Notes: a model not told the origin generated them from the letters alone. Shown: positions 47,731 through 58,855, counted from the stretch's first letter. The stretch is DNA of 64,000 nt from an uncultured bacterium (GCA_963736115.1 CAVTNR010000005.1:1-64000), one strand, 5' to 3'. A program made the numbers and translations.

Positions 47731-47830
47731 TGTCCGATAGCCTCGTAAAAAGCTTGCCCCGGACTTGATCCGGGGACGCTCGGCATATCGGACCTGCAAC
47801 TTTTTAACTCGGAACGCGGAACTCGGAACT
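47731..47830. repeat. Second copy of the GTAG-REP-like element plus a heptamer arm
   Basis: Near-identical to 16480-16550; followed by AACTC GGAACGC GGAACTC GGAACT. Confidence 0.85.
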
Positions 47831-48869
47831 AATCCATCGCGTCATACCGGTTCTTCAGCCCGGAGGAAATCTTCTGGCGCACGACGCCGTCCTCCTCGGT
47901 CATGACGATGCCCTCGACGTGCGGCAGGCTCTCGATGACCGCCAGGGCCGTGTCCGGATGGAGCGTGAACAAACCCGTGGCCAGGGCGTCGGCATCCAAT
48001 GCGGCCGGAGCCACCACGGTCACGCTGATGCATCCGGACTCAGCCGGAAACCCGGTCCTCGGATCGAGGATGTGGCAGTAGCGCTTTCCATTCTCCATGA
48101 AAACCCGCTCGTAATCGCCGGATGTGGCCACCGCCTCCTCTTCGAGTTGGATCACCCCGATGAGGCGGCCTTCCGGGTCGCGCGGATTCTTGACGCCGAT
48201 GCGCCAGCGCGGACGCTCCGGATGCCGGCCGAAAGCCGCGAGATCGCCAGTGGCCTCCACGATGCCGGAACGGACGCCGCTGCGGCGCAGGGACCGCACG
48301 GCCAGATCGATCAGGTATCCCTCTCCGAGACCGCCAAGGTCCATGGACGCGCCGCTGTTCTTCAGAAAAACGGTTCCGTCCCCGAGCTCGAGCTGACGCA
48401 TTCCTGAGACCCGGAGCCGTCGATTCAACGCGGCTTTGCCCGGGACGGCCGGGCGGTCCGTTCCGAATCCCCAGAGGATTTTAAGCCCTCCCAGAACGGC
48501 GTCGTATCCGCCGCGGGTCAGGCGCGACGCTTCAACGGCTTTGTCGATCAAGCCGCGGGTTTCAGGCCTGACCGCCACCGGCCGTTTGCCGGCCGCGGCA
48601 TTCACGCGAGCGATGTCACTGGTGTCCACATGCGCCGTGGTTCGTCCCTCGGCCGCACGCATTTCCCGGATGCATCGCTGAACAGCCGCCCGGGCGCCGG
48701 TTTCTCCGGAATCCGCTTCGTAAACCGTGATCTTAACGTGGGTGTCAACCAGAAAAGCTTCAGCGTTCACCGGAGAAGCGAGGCGGCCCCTCCGGCATCC
48801 CGGCTGGCTGGCCAGAAAGACCGATAGAATGAGAAGCACAACCTGATGCCGTTGAATCGATGCGATCAT
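47829..48869 (-). CDS. apbE: FAD:protein FMN transferase (ApbE) lipoprotein
   Basis: MDLGGLGEGY, WRIGVKNP, VATSGDYER, HILDPRTG, ADALAT. Confidence 0.92.
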   Translation of the reverse strand: MIASIQRHQVVLLILSVFLASQPGCRRGRLASPVNAEAFLVDTHVKITVYEADSGETGARAAVQRCIREMRAAEGRTTAHVDTSDIARVNAAAGKRPVAVRPETRGLIDKAVEASRLTRGGYDAVLGGLKILWGFGTDRPAVPGKAALNRRLRVSGMRQLELGDGTVFLKNSGASMDLGGLGEGYLIDLAVRSLRRSGVRSGIVEATGDLAAFGRHPERPRWRIGVKNPRDPEGRLIGVIQLEEEAVATSGDYERVFMENGKRYCHILDPRTGFPAESGCISVTVVAPAALDADALATGLFTLHPDTALAVIESLPHVEGIVMTEEDGVVRQKISSGLKNRYDAMD

Positions 48870-49942
48870 CAATGGCCTTCCCCGGCCCGCCGGAGCGCGC
48901 CGAAGCCGGTGCGTTCGGAATTCCGCTCCGGCTCCGGGAAATCCTCTTCCGGGTGGAAGGCCGTTCCGGTCCGGCCGGAAGCCGACCGGCCGCAGAGTAG
49001 AACCAGACCGGATCGGCAAACGGATTCCGGCAGTCCGGACAGCTGCCGGACCGCTTCGCCGAGCTCCGCAACCGCCCTCCTCTCGGCCGCCTCAGCGCCG
49101 CCATGACGCAGGATGAACGCGTGAATCCACGCGACGTCCGTGGCGTTCCGCCTTTCCATGCGGCGCAGGCACGCTTTCCGATCCGCGGCGCCGGATGCCC
49201 CGAGGCTGTAGACCAGGGGGAGCGTCCATCTCCCGCCGCCCGCATCCTGTCCGACCGGTTTACCGAGCAATTTCGCGTTTCCCGTGACGTCCTGAATGTC
49301 GTCCCGGATCTGATAGGCGAGGCCGAAATGACGGCCATACCGGCCCAGCGCACGGACCCGATTTTCGTCGGCGCCGGCCAGGCGGCCGCCGAGTTCGCAG
49401 GCCGTCTCCATCAGGCACGCGGTCTTGCCGAAGGCGACATCAAGCGCTTCCGCTTCGGAAGCCGCGGAAGCATTGCCGGACGCCGCCTGCTTCAGTTCCG
49501 CGGCCGTCATGGCAAGCAGGGCGCGGGACAGGGCCGGCAGGACGAAAGGCTCGGGACGGCTGATCGCCAGGGACAGCGTCTTCGCCATGAGGTAGTCGCC
49601 GGACAGGACGGAAAACCGGTTGCCTTCGGCCGCGTTCAGGCTTTTCAGCCCGCGCCGCCTGTCCGTTCCGTCCACCACATCATCATGGAGGAGGCTCGCG
49701 ATATGCAGGAGTTCGATGAGGACGGCAAAGCCGGGTACCGGCGGCCGTTCCGGATCCGCGGCGCCCTGGGCAAGCAGATGGAGCAGGGGTCGGAGCCGTT
49801 TGCCGGAAAGCAGGAGCGATGCCTTCAGCGCCGGATAGCCGGCGCTTTCCGCGGCGTCGAGCGACACGATGAATTCGGTTTCAAATCGCTCCAGCGCCGA
49901 AGCGACCGGAGCCGAAGCCTTCCGGAGCACGGCCGTGTTCAA
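48869..49942 (-). CDS. Polyprenyl diphosphate synthase (start uncertain)
   Basis: GKRLRP, HIASLLHDDVVD..RRG, KTA, QIRDDIQD, GKPVGQD. Confidence 0.9.
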   Translation of the reverse strand: MNTAVLRKASAPVASALERFETEFIVSLDAAESAGYPALKASLLLSGKRLRPLLHLLAQGAADPERPPVPGFAVLIELLHIASLLHDDVVDGTDRRRGLKSLNAAEGNRFSVLSGDYLMAKTLSLAISRPEPFVLPALSRALLAMTAAELKQAASGNASAASEAEALDVAFGKTACLMETACELGGRLAGADENRVRALGRYGRHFGLAYQIRDDIQDVTGNAKLLGKPVGQDAGGGRWTLPLVYSLGASGAADRKACLRRMERRNATDVAWIHAFILRHGGAEAAERRAVAELGEAVRQLSGLPESVCRSGLVLLCGRSASGRTGTAFHPEEDFPEPERNSERTGFGALRRAGEGH

Positions 49943-50105
49943 GCCGCGGTTCCGGGCTGACGCGACCGCCTGGGAATCGATGTCCGTCCTCCGGCGGATC
50001 CGGTTGTCCCGGCCGGCCGGTCCCACGCTGCCGCGGGAACCGCCCCTACGAAAACGGGCGGGTCCATTCCCCGCCCGTTGACCGCCGGAAATGCCGGAAA
50101 CCGGT

Positions 50106-50450
50106 TTATTTCGACCCGAAGGAGGCGACCGCCTCGTCGACCGTTTCATAGGTTTCGAATAACGTGATGAGTTTGGTGATCACGAACAGATTCTTGACTT
50201 TCTCCGTGACGCCGGTGACCCGCATCTCTCCGCCCGCGTTCCGGATCGACGTGAGGCATCCCATGAGCATGCCCAGGCCCGAACTGTTGATCCAGGCCAC
50301 GCCGGACAGATCAATCACCACATTCGCTTTCTTCAGGCCGACCAGCTCGCGGACCTTTTCATGAACCGCCAGCGTCTCGGGACCGCCCATCAGGTTTCCC
50401 TTGACGAGAAGTACGGCCGCAGTGCCCTGTTCTTTCACGTCCACTTTCAT
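50106..50450 (-). CDS. STAS domain anti-sigma-factor antagonist
   Basis: IDLSGVAWINSSGLG. Confidence 0.92.
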   Translation of the reverse strand: MKVDVKEQGTAAVLLVKGNLMGGPETLAVHEKVRELVGLKKANVVIDLSGVAWINSSGLGMLMGCLTSIRNAGGEMRVTGVTEKVKNLFVITKLITLFETYETVDEAVASFGSK

Positions 50451-50522
50451 AAATGCCTCCGATGCACATCATCCAATTCCCGGGAAATGTAGCCTATTTA
50501 GCCGAAAATTACAAGAGGTTTC

Positions 50523-52043
50523 TCATTTTTCCTGAAGGACTTGCGAGGTGTAAACATAAATGTCCGCCCCCTCCTTCCAGGCATCGGGCGGCAGGCCCGC
50601 TTTCTCCGCACAACAGCTTTCCAGAAACTGCTCCCGCGTCCAACCCATATCCGTCGCCACCTCGGGCAGATAGGTGCCGCTCCGCATGCCCTGCCGGACC
50701 CAGATGCCGTGCCTGCCGACCTCGATTTCCTCGACGGAATCGATTTTCTTGAGCGGGGACAGGATGGAAATCTTGATATCGATATCCTTCATCTCGCGTT
50801 CCGTGACCGGGTTGTGGGCGAACCGGTGATCCTGGGTCGCGGCCGCAACGGCCATCTGGGATACGATTTCGAACAGGGGCAGGTCGGGCTCGAAATGCCC
50901 GATGCACCCGCGCAGGCGGCCCCGGTTCTCCAGCGTCACGAAAACGCCGCGCTTGACGAGCAGATTCGGCGAATCGATGCTGAATTCCGGGGGCCGCTGT
51001 TCGTCCAGCGCGGCAAGAATGCTCTGACGCGCCACACGGAACAGCGTTTTTTTCTCCTCCGCGGTGAATTTGAGCGATTCCGGTTCCACGTTGCCGCCTC
51101 CTTTACTGAGTGAACCCGCTGCACCGACGAAGGCGGCCGCCCCGTACCCGACCACCCGATCCGCGTCGCCGGTGACATCCCCCGAATGGGCATAGGCCAG
51201 CTGAACCGCCCGGTCCGCGCCCATGGCGCGGGCCGCCAGCATGACGGTGACCAGGGCGCCCGATCCGCACAGCGCGCAGTCCAGATTCCGGATTCCCCGG
51301 GTTCGCGATTTGGCCTCGAGCGCAAGAATCCGCTTCGTGTCGTATCGCGACACGGCCGAAAGTACCTCGCCGTCGGCGCGCCGGGCGTCCGCGGCGGACG
51401 GAAAATGCGACATGTCCGAACTGGCGACCAGCAGCACCCGCCGGCCGGCGCATGCCGCGGCGATCGCGGCCGCGATCCTGCCGGCCTGGTCATGCGGCAT
51501 TTCTCCCGTGAGCATCAACACGACCGGCACGCCCGGAAGCGCGGTCTGAATGAACGGGAGCTGGACTTCGACGGAATGTTCTTCGTCGTCAACGCCCGGG
51601 ACAACCGTGATCCACGGATCCGCGGCTGTGAGCGCGCGGACCAGGCCGCGATCGACGGCGATACGGCCGAGCGGCGTGGCAAGCGAATCCCAATCGGCAA
51701 TGGCCGCGCCCTGTAACGCCCGGTAATGGCTGGGCCCGATCACCAGGACGGCGTCGTAGGACCGGCCCGACACCTGCCGATAGGCCGCGGCCGCGACCGG
51801 CCCGCTGTACTCGTAGCCCGCGTGCGGGGCCCAGATGCCCCGGATCTCCCCTTCCGTGACCGCGCCCCCGGCTTTGGACAGACAGAGCCGGACCTGCTCG
51901 CGGAGTTCGGTCGCGGAATAGGCGTAGAATTGTCCCGCCCGGGCCGCGGGCCTCACCTTGGCCGCAACCGTCTGCCGCTGCTGGCAGAAAAACAGGCAGA
52001 ACCCGAGAACCAGCAGGGCAACGGTCCATCCGCTGCGTTTCAT
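50523..52043 (-). CDS. amrB: AmmeMemoRadiSam protein B (MEMO)-protein A (AMMECR1) fusion with a signal peptide
   Basis: PHAGYEYSG, EHSVEVQLPF, ASSDMSH; GVFVTL...LRGCIG, YLPEVA; N-terminal hydrophobic stretch with Cys. Confidence 0.92.
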   Translation of the reverse strand: MKRSGWTVALLVLGFCLFFCQQRQTVAAKVRPAARAGQFYAYSATELREQVRLCLSKAGGAVTEGEIRGIWAPHAGYEYSGPVAAAAYRQVSGRSYDAVLVIGPSHYRALQGAAIADWDSLATPLGRIAVDRGLVRALTAADPWITVVPGVDDEEHSVEVQLPFIQTALPGVPVVLMLTGEMPHDQAGRIAAAIAAACAGRRVLLVASSDMSHFPSAADARRADGEVLSAVSRYDTKRILALEAKSRTRGIRNLDCALCGSGALVTVMLAARAMGADRAVQLAYAHSGDVTGDADRVVGYGAAAFVGAAGSLSKGGGNVEPESLKFTAEEKKTLFRVARQSILAALDEQRPPEFSIDSPNLLVKRGVFVTLENRGRLRGCIGHFEPDLPLFEIVSQMAVAAATQDHRFAHNPVTEREMKDIDIKISILSPLKKIDSVEEIEVGRHGIWVRQGMRSGTYLPEVATDMGWTREQFLESCCAEKAGLPPDAWKEGADIYVYTSQVLQEK

Positions 52044-52062
52044 AACCCGACCCTCCTCCCGA

Positions 52063-53178
52063 TCAGGCCCAGACACCGGGTATGGCGCGTCCGCAAAAAC
52101 CGCACTGCCCGTTGCGAAGATGCGTCTCCTGCACGGAGAAGCCGGAGCGGCGGATGACGGCCTTGTGACATCCGGGGCAGAATGTGTTCTCCGCCTCGTG
52201 CCCCGGCAGGTTGCCGAGATAGACGAAATGCAGCCCCGCCTCGCGACTGATGGACCAGGCGCGCTCCAGCGTGGCCGCGGGCGTCGGCGGCAGGTTGTTC
52301 AGCTTGTACTGCGGATAAAAACGGGAAAAATGGACCGGCACGTCCGGCCCCATCTCCTTGAACACCCATTCCGAGAGCTTACGGAAACCGGCGTCGGAGT
52401 CGTTGAGCGTGGGGACCACTAGATAAACGATCTCGCACCAGATTTTCCTGTCGCGCAGCCGGACCAGGGTCTCGAGCACCGGCGCCATCCGGCCGCCGCA
52501 TACGGACCGGTAATACGACTCGTCCATGGCCTTCAGATCGACTTTGTATCCGTCGATCACGCCGCACAGGTCCTCGAGCGGCTCCCTGCGGATGAATCCG
52601 TTCGAAATGACCACGCTCCGGAGGCCCAGGCGCCGGCCCGCTGCGGCCGTGTCGACCGCGAACTCGTTGAACACCGTGGGCTCGGAGTATGTGAAGGCGA
52701 TCACCGGGCATCGGGCGCGGGTCGCCGCTTCAGCGACGGATGATGCCGAAAGCTCGGGGACCTGGGCCTCCTCCGGACGCCGCTGGGACAGGTCCCAGTT
52801 CTGACAGAACCGGCAATCGAAGTTGCAGCCCACGGTGGAGATGGAATAAGCCGGACTGCCCGGGAGCAGATGATAAAACGGCTTCTTCTCGATCGGGTCG
52901 ACATGAGAAGCCGCCACCCGGCCGTACACCAGGCTGTAGAAACGTCCGGCCCGGTTTTCCCGCACGCCGCATTTGCCCCGCTTCCCCTCGTCCACCAGGC
53001 ATTCCCAGGGGCACAGCCCGCATTGCACCTTGTTTCCCGCGAGCTTGCGGTAATGACGGGCCTCTTTGCCGGCCGGCCGTTCCGCGCCGCCGAGGCGGCC
53101 GGCCGGACCGGTCAAGCCGCAAGCCACAACCCCGGTTGCGGCCGCGAGGAAGCGCCTCCGGGACACGGCGGTTTTCAT
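52063..53178 (-). CDS. amrS: AmmeMemoRadiSam radical SAM enzyme with a Tat signal
   Basis: SRRRFL; DPIEKKP; CNFDCRFCQNW; YSEPT; HFSRFYP. Confidence 0.93.
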   Translation of the reverse strand: MKTAVSRRRFLAAATGVVACGLTGPAGRLGGAERPAGKEARHYRKLAGNKVQCGLCPWECLVDEGKRGKCGVRENRAGRFYSLVYGRVAASHVDPIEKKPFYHLLPGSPAYSISTVGCNFDCRFCQNWDLSQRRPEEAQVPELSASSVAEAATRARCPVIAFTYSEPTVFNEFAVDTAAAGRRLGLRSVVISNGFIRREPLEDLCGVIDGYKVDLKAMDESYYRSVCGGRMAPVLETLVRLRDRKIWCEIVYLVVPTLNDSDAGFRKLSEWVFKEMGPDVPVHFSRFYPQYKLNNLPPTPAATLERAWSISREAGLHFVYLGNLPGHEAENTFCPGCHKAVIRRSGFSVQETHLRNGQCGFCGRAIPGVWA

Positions 53179-53246
53179 CCGTGCCGCCTTTTTGCCGGTT
53201 CGGCAGGGACCGCCGGGAGAATGTGAAAATGGGACGGCACCGGAAC

Positions 53247-53693
53247 CTACCGTGACGGCAGGGTGTCGGGCCGGGCGTGATTCAGGGCGGCCCGCACCGC
53301 CTCCTTCAGACTGTTGCAGGACAGCGTGGCGCCGGTGATGCCGTCTACTTCCGCCGATCCTTTCTCCTTCATCAGGACCGGGAGGCGCCGTACGACGCGG
53401 TCGTAATACCGGGGCGTCCCCTTTGCCTTCAGAACTTCCACGCAGGCCAGACGCCCGTCTTCGATATGCACGGCCACGGCCATGCCGGTCCAGCCCGGGC
53501 TCTCGGCCTTGTATATCCCGTCCCTGAAGTTCTGGACGGAACCAGCCGAGGTTTCGTGAACGACGGTTGCTGAAGCGCTTGTGACTGAATCGCCGGCCGG
53601 GCCGGCCGCAAATCCCGCGGCCGGACTGACCAGCCACAGGACGGCGGCCGACAGCAACCGGAACAGACATGCCTGGTGTTTCAGGATTCCCAT
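53247..53693 (-). CDS. Exported FMN-binding domain protein
   Basis: Signal peptide; RDGIYKAES...VDGITGATLSC flavinylation motif. Confidence 0.85.
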   Translation of the reverse strand: MGILKHQACLFRLLSAAVLWLVSPAAGFAAGPAGDSVTSASATVVHETSAGSVQNFRDGIYKAESPGWTGMAVAVHIEDGRLACVEVLKAKGTPRYYDRVVRRLPVLMKEKGSAEVDGITGATLSCNSLKEAVRAALNHARPDTLPSR

Positions 53694-54052
53694 GGCCTGT
53701 TCCTGGTCATCATCCATTCCGTGAACAGACCGATGGCCGCGCCCGTCACCGGGATCCAGGCGGCCAGGGATTTTCCCCAATCCCCGCCGAACCAGGCCAG
53801 ACCCGCGGCCAGGGGGAGATTGAATCCGAGCCCGAACACGAGGCCTTTCACCCACCAGGACGCGGACCATTTCTCCGCTCCGATCACCGCGCCCATAAGC
53901 GTCTGAACGAGGACGACGGCGCGCACCGCCCATGCGGTGATGTCGTTGGTGATGCTCCAGGCCACCACATAGTCGCAGATGCCCAGAAAGAGGCCCCAGC
54001 CCGCGGCCGACTTCACGCGCGGCCAGAGGCCTGTTTTGATTCGGTTTTCCAT
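53681..54052 (-). CDS. Small 4-TM membrane protein, unknown function
   Basis: Four hydrophobic segments; overlaps the FMN-binding gene start. Confidence 0.65.
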   Translation of the reverse strand: MENRIKTGLWPRVKSAAGWGLFLGICDYVVAWSITNDITAWAVRAVVLVQTLMGAVIGAEKWSASWWVKGLVFGLGFNLPLAAGLAWFGGDWGKSLAAWIPVTGAAIGLFTEWMMTRNRPWES

Positions 54053-54161: not shown

Positions 54162-54920
54162 TTACTTTTTCGATTCCACCGCTTTTTCCAGGAAAGGCCT
54201 GAAAAGATCGATCGGAATCGGGAACAGGGTGGTCGAATTGTTCTCCGCCGCGATCTCCACGAGGGTCTGGAGGAAACGAAGCTGCATGGACGTCGGTTCC
54301 TTGCCGAGTATGTGAGCCGCGTCCGCCAGCTTCTGCGACGCCTGGAATTCGCCGTCCGCGTGGATGACCTTGGCACGGCGTTCGCGTTCGGCCTCGGCCT
54401 GCCGCGCGATGGCGCGCTTCATCTCATCCGGCAGATCGATGTTCTTCACCTCGACGAGGGCCACCTTGATGCCCCAGGGGCCGGTGTGCTTGTCAAGTAT
54501 GTCCTGGAGCTTTTCGTTGATAGTCTCGCGTTCCGATAGGAGCTGGTCGAGCTCGAACTGTCCGAGCGTGGACCGGAGCGTTGTCTGCGCGAGCTGGGAC
54601 GTGGCGTACAGGTAGTCCTGCACGTCGGTGACGGCCTTGTTGGCGTCAACCACGCGGAAATACACCACCGCATTCACCTTCACGGATATATTGTCCTTCG
54701 AAATCACGTCCTGGGGGGGGACCTCCATGGGGATGGTGCGCAGGCTGACTTTCACCATTTTGTCGAAGACCGGGATCAGAAGGATGAGCCCCGGGCCCTT
54801 GGCCTTGATCAGGCGTCCCAGGCGGAAAATAACACCCCGTTCGTATTCCCGAAGAATGCGGACGGAATTGGCCAGAAGGAACAGGACGAAAAAGATTACA
54901 ACGATCCATTGAGTGGACAT
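54162..54920 (-). CDS. Slipin/SPFH (stomatin-like) protein
   Basis: [36 protein letters not shown]. Confidence 0.95.
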
Positions 54921-55029: not shown

Positions 55030-56334
55030 TCATTTTCCCCGGCTTTCAACCGGAGTAACCTCCAGAACGAGTCCGTCGACCGACCGGACGACCACCTTTT
55101 CACCCTTTTTTACCGGTTTTTTGCTTCGGGCCGTCCAGATTTCTCCGTGCACGGAAATTTTCCCCTCCTCGCGTATGGCATCCACGACCGTTCCGATCTC
55201 GCCGACCAGGCCCTCTTCTCCGGTGGTGATTTTCAGACGGTGCGCCCGGGCCGTCAGGGCCAGTGCGAAGAGGAAAAACAGGGCCGAGCACAGGACGGCG
55301 GTGACAATGATGCTCAATGAAACCCTCATTTCCGGGGATTTGAACAGCATGAGTGATCCCAGAAACATGGCCACAATTCCTCCAATCGCCAGCAATCCAT
55401 GGCTGTTGACCTTCACTTCGACGATGAAAAACAGAATGGCAAGGAGTATCAGCAGAACTCCGGATGCGTTGACCGTAAGCACCTGCAGGGCAAAAAACGC
55501 GAGGATGAGAAAAATGCCGCCGATCACGCCGGGCAGAATGGCGCCCGGGTTGGACAGCTCGAAAAACAGGCCGTAGATGCCGAGCATCATGAGAATGTAG
55601 GCGATGTTGGGATCCGAAATCTTGTCGAGGATGCGGTAGCGCCAATCCATGGCCGAATGCCGGACGCCCGCGTCCTTCGTCTGAAGGGTTTTCTCTACGC
55701 CGTTATCGAGTCGGATCGTGCGGCCGTCCACCTGGTCCAGAAGGTCGCCGAGGTCTTTGGCGATGATTTCCGCGACTTTCTTCGAGACCGCCTCGGTTTC
55801 AGTGATGGAAACGCTTTCGCGCACCGCCTGCTCGGCCCATTGGCCGTTCCGGCCCCGCTTCTCGGCCAGACCCTTGATATGGGCCACCGCATCGTTGGTG
55901 ATCTTCTCCATCATGGTCTTCGAGGAGTCCTGGCCGCCCATGACGACCGGATGCGCGGATCCAAGATGGGTGGCGGGGGCCATGGCGATCAGATGCGCTG
56001 CGTAGGAGATGTAAACCCCGGCTGAGGCAGCCCTGCCTCCGCTGGGAGAGATGTACACGATGACAGGCACCAGGGAGGCGAGTATGGACTTGTCGATTTT
56101 CCAGGTGGCTTCCATGAGACCGCCCGGCGTGTCCATCTGGATGACCAGGCACTCGGCCTGGTTGTCTTCTGCCAGGCGGATGGCCTCATCAATGTATTTA
56201 GCGGTCACGGGCGTGATCGCGCCTTCGATTTTCAGGACTTCAACGGTATTCGCGGCCCCGAGCCCGGTCGCACCGAGCAGGAACAAAGCCGTCAGGAACC
56301 CTCTGAAGACCTCTGAATGCTTTAATAATCTCAT
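55030..56334 (-). CDS. nfeD: NfeD long form (ClpP-like protease domain)
   Basis: [30 protein letters not shown]; adjacent to the slipin gene. Confidence 0.93.
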
Positions 56335-56673
56335 AGATAGGCTCCTATTCCCCATTCTATTTGAATGTACGTAATTTTTTGAAAAAAGTATATGAAAATC
56401 GACCGGGAAAGAAGGGGAAATCCGAAACCGGAACACTGTCATCTATATTAATATCAATATTTTAAAACCCGGAGGATCCTTCCTTCGCTCGTCCGGGCCT
56501 CACCCATGGAAACGGCCGGGTCCGGTTTTGAAGCATCCCGGACTAACGCTCGACCCGTACCGGAGAAAGACGGAATCCTTCTTTTAGAAGGTACCCGGCT
56601 TCCGCCTGTTACACGCCATGCGCATCTCCCTGTGCGCTGTGCCCCATGCGTAATGCGTTATCCGCATTACCTC

Positions 56674-58328: not shown

Positions 58329-58498
58329 ATCCCTGCTCCAGTAGCAACCACATCTATAAAGAACCTTCAAATCAGAGAGACAGGGAGCCCGACTCTGGAC
58401 GCGTATTACAGGCCTCCATCGAGTGGAAGTAAAAAACGTCAGGGGGGCACCCACCGTGTGACCCACGGTTCTTTATAGCCATGCTATTGGGCAGGGAT
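58329..58498 (+). ncRNA. ssrS: 6S RNA
   Basis: Long closing stem ATCCCTGC-TCCAGTAGCA/TGCTATTGG-GCAGGGAT, CTATAAAGAACC/GGTTCTTTATAG, central bubble, GGGAGCCC...GGGCACCCACC motifs; TTGACA at 58277. Confidence 0.8.
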
Positions 58499-58855
58499 AT
58501 TTTTTTGCCCGGATAGAACCGCGACTCCCTCCTCCACACTCCCCGCCATCGGAAATAAATCCCCCAGGTGCATGCGTTCGAAGAGTTCCTTCAGAATGGC
58601 CCCCAGTCCGGCCACGGCGAAACGTCCGCCATCTTTGGTCACCCGGTCGTAGGTCAGGATCACGACGCCCAGGGCCGAACTGTTCATCACGTCCACGCCG
58701 TTGAGATCGATGAGCACGGACCTGCGTCCCTGTTCGATGAGACCGAGCATTTCCGCGCGAAAGGCCGGCACAGCCTGCTGGTACAGCTTGCGGCATTTCA
58801 CGGTGGCGACGGTCACCCCGTCCCGGTCTGCGATTGAAAGCATGGATTCGGACAT
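58484..58855 (-). CDS. STAS domain protein
   Basis: IDLNGVDVMNSSALG. Confidence 0.88.
   Translation of the reverse strand: MSESMLSIADRDGVTVATVKCRKLYQQAVPAFRAEMLGLIEQGRRSVLIDLNGVDVMNSSALGVVILTYDRVTKDGGRFAVAGLGAILKELFERMHLGDLFPMAGSVEEGVAVLSGQKNIPAQ

Follow-up and report, generated by a model that had tools for sequence, protein, structure and literature searches.

Can a radical S-adenosylmethionine (SAM) enzyme operate outside the cytoplasm, and from where would it then receive its electrons? The question is raised by a locus in a 64,000-nt stretch of DNA from an uncultured bacterium (GCA_963736115.1 CAVTNR010000005.1:1-64000), which we call the window and to which all coordinates without a contig or locus name refer. 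The chemistry of radical SAM enzymes depends on SAM, on an iron-sulfur cluster and on an electron of low potential, each of which is generally regarded as cytoplasmic. The window carries genes for an AmmeMemoRadiSam system, consisting of the radical SAM enzyme AmrS and a fused AmrB-AmrA (Memo-AMMECR1) protein, both with N-terminal export signals, and upstream of them a gene for a secreted flavin mononucleotide (FMN)-binding protein of the FMN_bind family. The reading that we favour overall is that the window encodes an extracytoplasmic AmmeMemoRadiSam system with a flavoprotein redox partner, and we put its probability at roughly 50%. All genes that an initial annotation of this DNA had listed were recovered at their positions, on the minus strand throughout. 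Leaders and signal peptides were judged by eye from translations, and supporting domain calls were made with Pfam and NCBIfam models. The genome to which the window belongs is 87% complete; its contigs are given C numbers, and the compared genomes and loci G and L numbers, respectively.

The AmrS gene (52063..53178, minus strand) encodes a protein of 371 residues that matches TIGR04337 at 360.4 bits (cut-off 220). The radical SAM motif CX3CX2C is present as CNFDCRFC (C118/C122/C125) and is invariant in 43 aligned sequences, as is an additional four-cysteine site in the N-terminal part (C53, C56, C60, C70); another four-cysteine site is found towards the C-terminus (C334, C337, C359, C362). The protein begins with MKTAVSRRRFL (MKTAVSRRRFLAAATGVVACGLTG), and the TIGR04337 profile starts about 40 residues past this start. 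The intervening segment, residues 1 to about 33, has the features of a leader for the twin-arginine translocation (Tat) pathway, in which a moderately hydrophobic stretch comes after a [ST]-R-R-x-F-L motif (SRRRFLAAATGVVACGLTG). The motif is not an artefact of start-codon choice: in 43 aligned AmrS homologues with 52-90% identity to the window protein, R7, R8 and F10 do not vary. Among the nearest database proteins (120, at 52-90% identity) the arginine pair is found in 109, and the other 11 look N-terminally truncated; among 80 related AmrS loci (L001-L080), drawn from species-representative genomes of many phyla, it is found in 70. Three more of these loci run into a contig end, and in four the N-terminus is hydrophobic but lacks the pair. 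All 24 intact AmrS copies of the window's order carry it (21 found by regular expression and three more from the printed sequence). The twin-arginine signal (SRRRFL) proposed in the initial annotation is thus conserved among homologues, related loci and order copies, and a start downstream of the arginine pair, which would have removed it, is contradicted by this conservation and by where the profile begins. TatC, the component of the Tat machinery that was searched for, is encoded in the same genome on contig C14 (PF00902, 223.9 bits).

The AmrB-AmrA open reading frame (50523..52043, minus strand) begins 19 nt past the AmrS stop, and a GGAGG ribosome-binding site precedes its ATG by 6 nt. The encoded protein of 506 residues matches both TIGR04336 (236 bits, cut-off 26) and TIGR04335 (173.4 bits, cut-off 99). 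It starts with a signal peptide of the type used by the general secretory (Sec) pathway (MKRSGWTVALLVLGFCLFFC), as had been annotated, and a hydrophobic leader is found by eye in 26 of 26 copies of the window's order; many copies in other phyla bear classical lipoboxes, again as judged by eye. Alignment with human MEMO1 (7kq8) shows that the APHAGY, GPSH and SSDxxH segments and the cysteine of the CG pair are kept; the iron ligands given for MEMO1 are H49, H81 and C244 (PMC11081632). In alignments to archaeal AMMECR1 structures the RGCIGH segment is kept, and the RGCIG and DxRF motifs described for AMMECR1 (PMC2034487) are present. In family f2 of the order an M28 peptidase gene is inserted between AmrS and AmrB-AmrA (L141:5460-6965 and L006:9221-10750), and its L006 copy begins with a hydrophobic leader; this insertion hints at a peptide or protein substrate. 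Two genomes have lost AmrS at the syntenic position and possess other copies elsewhere: in G023 (L149) a fragment of about 60 residues is left, and in G037 (L136) AmrS is missing between a GNAT-like gene and AmrB-AmrA.

The same genome also encodes counterparts without leaders. A second AmrS (C2:103607-104659) starts with MKEARHY at the point where the mature part of the window AmrS begins, and a leaderless Memo-like AmrB is encoded at C24:14256-15110. Since these proteins coexist with the leader-bearing ones, the leader appears to be an addition to a cytoplasmic template. A further sequence, C27:239-1141, shares an identical Memo-like core with the C24 AmrB but not its flanks, and could be a fragment or a duplicate produced in assembly. 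The three-gene AmmeMemoRadiSam system is known through NCBIfam models, and the probably exported form described here is a variant of it. Like the canonical cytoplasmic system, it has adjacent genes that match TIGR04337, TIGR04336 and TIGR04335 above cut-off, and it retains the CX3CX2C motif (as defined for this family in PMC2034487), both four-cysteine sites, the Memo iron ligands and the RGCIG and DxRF motifs. It differs in having an export signal on every component, in the AmrB-AmrA fusion and in the secreted flavoprotein upstream. The conserved Tat and Sec leaders depart from the cytoplasmic location that is implicit in the canonical system, of which the C2 paralogue has the form. An exported system would be at odds with the role in RNA base modification that has been proposed for AMMECR1 (PMC2034487).

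The nearest solved radical SAM relative of AmrS is the pyruvate formate-lyase activating enzyme PflA (PDB 3c8f), to which the core aligns over residues 116-315 with an E-value of 5.7e-10. PflA is a cytoplasmic enzyme and, unlike AmrS, has neither a leader nor the extra cysteine sites. AmrS is not itself a PflA, because it scores 56 bits with TIGR02493, far under the cut-off of 231.75.

The Tat motif of AmrS and the signal peptide of AmrB-AmrA are conserved across phyla and TatC is encoded, and for these reasons the leaders indicate that the AmrS system is probably exported.

The candidate redox partner is encoded at 53247..53693 (minus strand). This FMN_bind protein of 148 residues matches PF04205 at 41.9 bits (cut-off 22) and contains the motif DGITGAT. 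Its leader is hydrophobic in 14 of 14 aligned members, and V116, D117, G121, A122, T123, L124 and S125 are invariant in these 14 sequences, within the motif VD-G-I-T-G-A-T-L-S. Its annotation as a secreted FMN-binding protein is supported by profile score, leader and invariant residues alike. A locus search with this protein alone recovered only close relatives. The TGAT part aligns to SGAT of the solved FMN-binding domain 8p2b, and Thr123 is the predicted site of FMN attachment. The enzyme that could carry out this attachment, an ApbE-type FAD:protein FMN transferase (47829..48869, minus strand; PF02424, 250.5 bits), is encoded downstream past an STAS gene and a polyprenyl synthase gene, where it had been placed by the initial annotation. 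It has a lipoprotein-type leader, and its orthologues bear lipoboxes by eye. It is the only leader-bearing ApbE of the genome, a second one on contig C12 starting without a hydrophobic leader, and its location in the same co-oriented run as FMN_bind supports a flavin partner. Besides the AmrS-adjacent protein only one other FMN_bind protein was found in the genome, and both are small and secreted. This second one is a lipoprotein of 134 residues with the motif VSGAT (C8:49151-49555, in the region C8:48786-49555), and the start of the 122-residue gene that follows it looks flavodoxin-like by eye only. An FMN_bind protein of RnfG or NqrC size was not found in the 87%-complete window genome, unlike in the rest of the order; all 31 order genomes encode FMN_bind proteins elsewhere, many of them of such a size. 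Like the ApbE substrates NqrC and RnfG and the extracytosolic flavinylated proteins in a survey by Meheust et al. (2021, eLife; PMC8238504), the window protein is a secreted FMN_bind protein with an [S/T]GA[S/T] motif, and the gene for an exported ApbE is close by; unlike them, it is a small protein that stands alone beside a radical SAM system. The terms radical SAM, AMMECR1, Memo and nitroreductase do not occur in the main text of that survey.

Comparison within the order shows that the position directly upstream of AmrS is a variable flavoprotein slot, which may hold a stand-alone FMN_bind protein or a SagB-like enzyme and which we describe here as a new feature of exported AmrS loci. The slot was readable in 25 of the 31 genomes; in G018, G023, G027, G029, G032 and G037 the locus had decayed, lacked AmrS or ran into a contig end, and these genomes were dropped. 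An exported flavoprotein occupies it in 18 of these 25 genomes, which makes a flavin partner plausible. It is FMN_bind alone in six (G000, G028, G030, G033, G035, G036), FMN_bind with a nitroreductase-family gene in two (G021, G022), a nitroreductase-FMN_bind fusion of 474-478 residues in two (G016, G020) and a nitroreductase alone in eight (G012-G015, G017, G031, G040, G041). The remaining seven (G019, G024-G026, G034, G038, G039) have no flavoprotein in the slot. The nitroreductases bear leaders or lipoboxes where the start is clear and match the SagB-family model TIGR03605 at 136-146 bits (cut-off 78.4), the fusion reaching only 35.8 bits. Examples of nitroreductases and fusions, of a short SagB-family type, are L124:3358-4794, L126:2146-3570, L127:2682-3371, L139:3415-4044 and L141:8568-9245. 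Other SagB-family FMN-dependent peptide dehydrogenases match the same model; the slot proteins differ from them in their length of about 210-250 residues, in their leaders and in not standing beside cyclodehydratase genes, and none is present in the window. Even apart from AmrS, an exported SagB-like dehydrogenase with a domain for covalent flavin is an unusual protein. Members of the window's genus have only FMN_bind beside AmrS, and no nitroreductase nearby. Exported nitroreductase paralogues occur elsewhere in the window genome on contigs C12 and C13; with a model built on the AmrS-adjacent nitroreductases they score 95 and 69 bits, respectively, versus 386 bits for the L006 copy, which is itself part of the model.

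Outside the order, the 80 related loci point to another way in which electrons could enter AmrS. A CxxCH motif is located between the leader and the first cysteine site in 49 of the 80 proteins. In Chloroflexota loci (L009, L010, L014, L017, L019, L024, L036, L043, L046, L048, L055), in which AmrS has this motif, the cytochrome c maturation genes ResB (11) and CcsA (9) lie directly upstream of AmrS. The attachment of haem c takes place outside the cytoplasm, and the motif together with the adjacent ResB and CcsA genes would imply haem attachment to these relatives. Covalently bound haem c would be an uncommon feature in a Tat substrate. Separate redox-partner genes beside AmrS were found in 8 of the 31 loci without CxxCH versus none of the 49 with it, the partners being FMN_bind in two, a nitroreductase in one and DUF362 proteins in five. 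The DUF362 genes are directly upstream of the CxxCH-less AmrS (L007:6896-7909, L077:7043-7942, and also in L021, L022 and L052). Downstream, a membrane protein of about 720 residues with a Spermine_synth domain (PF01564) directly follows AmrB-AmrA in 36 of the 80 loci (e.g. L028:3290-5473 and L049:10650-12848) and is a candidate link to SAM-type ligands. In two Chloroflexota loci membrane domains of the DUF4405/cytochrome b561 type are fused to a nitroreductase a few kilobases downstream of the AmrS and AmrB-AmrA genes (L009:12223-13341, L046:12208-13851).

Taking the gene content, the signals, the flavinylation motif and the slot as the data, we infer export, flavinylation, the direction of electron flow, a SAM source outside the cytoplasm and the type of substrate. 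AmrS would receive its iron-sulfur clusters in the cytoplasm and would then be exported in folded form via Tat, whereas the Memo-AMMECR1 fusion and FMN_bind would leave via Sec. Outside the cytoplasm, the lipoprotein ApbE could attach FMN covalently to Thr123 of FMN_bind. At the outer face of the inner membrane, the resulting flavoprotein may exchange electrons with the AmrS system as its redox partner. Single electrons would pass from it to the N-terminal four-cysteine site (C53, C56, C60, C70) and on to the radical SAM cluster. Such an entry at the N-terminal cysteines would parallel the position of CxxCH in AmrS of other lineages. The reduction of PflA by flavodoxin provides a precedent for a flavin hydroquinone that reduces such a cluster. 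The different parts of this scheme do not stand equally. The chances that FMN_bind works together with the AmrS system appear evenly divided, and its acting as the direct reductant of AmrS, the role that we would assign to it first, is a tentative proposal that is more likely wrong than right. In a prediction run without controls, a complex of mature AmrS and the FMN_bind domain scored 0.00, which counts neither for nor against contact. The initial annotation had pictured a periplasmic radical-SAM/MEMO/AMMECR1 module fed by a flavinylated carrier. Export is the part of that picture that stands; neither ApbE nor a four-transmembrane (4-TM) protein encoded upstream of FMN_bind holds as its dedicated component, and the carrier could be its reductant in the tentative sense just given.

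Several observations weigh against an exported system with FMN_bind as its partner. We know of no SAM outside the cytoplasm, no membrane electron conduit is visible in the region, where the 4-TM protein has no cofactor ligands, and the Spermine_synth-type membrane protein of other phyla was not found in the window genome. The slot is without a flavoprotein in 7 of the 25 order genomes, and the genomes compared are relatives, so the counts do not represent independent events. Judged from the fusions and gene pairs, the closest tie of FMN_bind is to the nitroreductase rather than to AmrS. Outside the order FMN_bind adjoins AmrS in 2 of the 80 loci and ApbE in 4, and adjacency of these genes to Tat-bearing AmrS, on which the annotated link had leaned, is thus not conserved across phyla. 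Even within the order ApbE adjacency does not track FMN_bind presence. The block AmrS-AmrBA-STAS-PPS-ApbE, in which AmrBA is the AmrB-AmrA gene and PPS the polyprenyl synthase gene, is syntenic in 17 of the 31 order genomes. Among the 17 are G024, G025, G026, G038 and G039, which have no FMN_bind neighbour, and ApbE is missing from this position in G021 and G022, which have one. ApbE probably also serves the RnfG- or NqrC-sized FMN_bind proteins that are encoded elsewhere in the order. Because the block is kept without FMN_bind, FMN_bind loci occur without ApbE, and further FMN_bind proteins are present, ApbE is best seen as a general exported flavin transferase in inherited synteny.

These points bear differently on the explanations that can be considered besides the favoured one. 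If the system were not exported, the twin-arginine leader would be vestigial, would bind a chaperone or would anchor the protein in the membrane, and SAM and reductants would be at hand for catalytic domains that remain cytoplasmic. This would remove the unexplained SAM supply outside the cell and would agree with the outcome of literature searches on exported or periplasmic radical SAM enzymes and on the system name, conducted mostly at abstract level, in which no paper on an extracytoplasmic radical SAM enzyme was found; the four loci with a hydrophobic N-terminus lacking the arginine pair also fit it. A study of Memo/LigB dioxygenases by Burroughs, Glasner, Barry, Taylor and Aravind (JBC, 2019) is said to treat Memo-AMMECR1-radical SAM contexts and may mention secreted forms. 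However, the leader has the full layout of n-, h- and c-regions, the positive charges ahead of the hydrophobic stretch would place an anchored domain outside, and the partner proteins bear Sec or lipoprotein signals. The CxxCH motif with neighbouring ResB and CcsA in relatives and the leaderless AmrS paralogue in the same genome speak in the same direction, and we regard a cytoplasmic system as very improbable. A different objection accepts export and denies a functional link: the adjacency would be inherited synteny, with FMN_bind, ApbE and the polyprenyl synthase working in extracytoplasmic electron transfer by flavins and quinones in general. Indeed, the block NfeD-SPFH-4TM ... AmrS-AmrBA-STAS-PPS-ApbE-epimerase-heptosyltransferase is kept across the order with housekeeping envelope genes included. 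The retention of ApbE where FMN_bind is absent, the rarity of the FMN_bind neighbour across phyla and the second small FMN_bind lipoprotein on contig C8 are expected from it as well. Passive synteny is nevertheless awkward because the slot changes form, from FMN_bind to nitroreductase, to both or to a fusion, while staying a flavoprotein in 18 of 25 genomes; all slot proteins, moreover, bear leaders where the start is clear. We therefore consider the absence of any link unlikely.

An explanation that stays closer to the favoured one keeps FMN_bind in the exported pathway of AmrS but gives it a role other than reducing that enzyme. In an FMN-dependent dehydrogenation of the shared envelope substrate, carried out by a SagB-like enzyme or at the Memo iron site, it would take up the electrons as a sink or pass them on as a relay, and AmrS would obtain its electron from elsewhere. 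The two genomes with the fusion, the two with adjacent genes and the eight with a nitroreductase and no FMN_bind are in agreement with such a role, and the exported paralogues on C12 and C13 could provide the dehydrogenase in the window genome. Against this, no nitroreductase is found near the FMN_bind gene of the window's genus, and the low scores of the two paralogues mark them as distant from the AmrS-adjacent enzymes. The proposal has in our view a rather small chance of being correct. Returning to the favoured reading, an extracytoplasmic AmmeMemoRadiSam system with a flavoprotein partner, it could be extended to a self-contained periplasmic module. AmrS would be exported via Tat with its clusters, perhaps with SAM bound, and would be re-reduced outside by the covalently flavinylated carrier. 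The electrons would stem from SagB-like dehydrogenation of the same envelope substrate, so that a membrane conduit would not be needed, and Memo-AMMECR1 would hold the substrate or be the modified target itself. This extension is speculative and, taken as a whole, improbable.

The co-oriented run around the system starts with a gene for an NfeD-family membrane protease-like protein (55030..56442, minus strand; Pfam NfeD_membrane, NfeD1b_N and NfeD), followed by one for an SPFH/Band 7 (stomatin-like) protein (54162..54920, minus strand; PF01145, 133 bits), whose start at MSTQW is approximate. Next is the gene for the 4-TM protein (53681..54052, minus strand), the 3' end of which is overlapped by the ATG of FMN_bind. 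The initial annotation had counted it as part of the AmrS run. However, it directly follows NfeD-SPFH in 28 of the 30 best loci (L094-L123), with AmrS next to it or not, and for this reason it belongs with that upstream pair. The protein has 123 residues and is matched by neither Pfam nor NCBIfam. A stretch SAAGWGLFLGxCD is invariant among ten close homologues, and there are no histidines, a single conserved cysteine and no cysteine pairs that could act as ligands. The family is present in 72 of 167 genomes of the phylum, a tally that includes genome G158, and in 31 of 31 of the order, and it has 36 cluster representatives in a large protein library. A database search with the protein returned only unnamed clusters, and a locus search with it alone only close relatives; two longer proteins that match its profile, P0142 and P0161, gave only DUF7572 and sub-threshold Pfam matches, and tandem forms gave none. 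The 4-TM protein is probably the third gene of an NfeD-SPFH module and a new family, and it is unlikely to be an electron conduit. Roles as electron conduit or SAM exporter were dropped, since it travels with NfeD-SPFH and has no ligand residues. In many relatives, outside the window's genus, a gene for about 375 residues with weak similarity to GNAT acetyltransferases (PF00583) is located between the 4-TM gene and the AmrS slot (L124:2204-3331, L130:2337-3485, L139:2121-3239).

On the downstream side, an STAS gene for an anti-sigma-factor antagonist (50106..50450, minus strand; PF01740, TIGR00377) invariably lies directly downstream of AmrB-AmrA across the window's order. Its product has no signal peptide, though the neighbouring system carries export signals, and a further STAS gene is present in the window at 58484-58855. 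The next gene encodes a long-chain polyprenyl diphosphate synthase (48869..49930, minus strand, start approximate; PF00348, 163.6 bits). The ATG of ApbE overlaps its stop codon, as it does in the relatives L004 and L006. Just past ApbE is a hairpin with a stem of 8 pairs (6 G-C) and a T run behind it (47757..47775, minus strand). It is the best terminator-like candidate in the region and probably ends the transcription unit; terminator-like sites occur here at chance level (12 found versus 9.7 expected), and only the position of this hairpin is suggestive. With its secreted FMN_bind protein, ApbE-family transferase and polyprenyl synthase, the locus recalls the flavin-based extracellular electron transfer locus of Listeria, with PplA, FmnB, DmkB and others. 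In the window, in contrast, the synthase and ApbE genes are in housekeeping synteny. A Listeria-type electron-export locus was rejected, as none of the 10 open reading frames between 46.6 and 56.4 kb gave a Pfam match to an NADH dehydrogenase, a prenyltransferase or an EetA/EetB-type protein; the rest of the genome was not searched for them.

If the reading is correct, the AmrS proteins described here would form a conserved exported branch, and radical SAM chemistry would take place also at the cell envelope, which raises the questions of where the electrons and SAM come from. Memo and AMMECR1 also have human homologues. A bacterial Memo/AMMECR1 protein that is confined to the periplasm and has a flavin partner would narrow the substrates to envelope molecules or exported proteins, and the small, expressible set of proteins would be suited to reconstitution in vitro.

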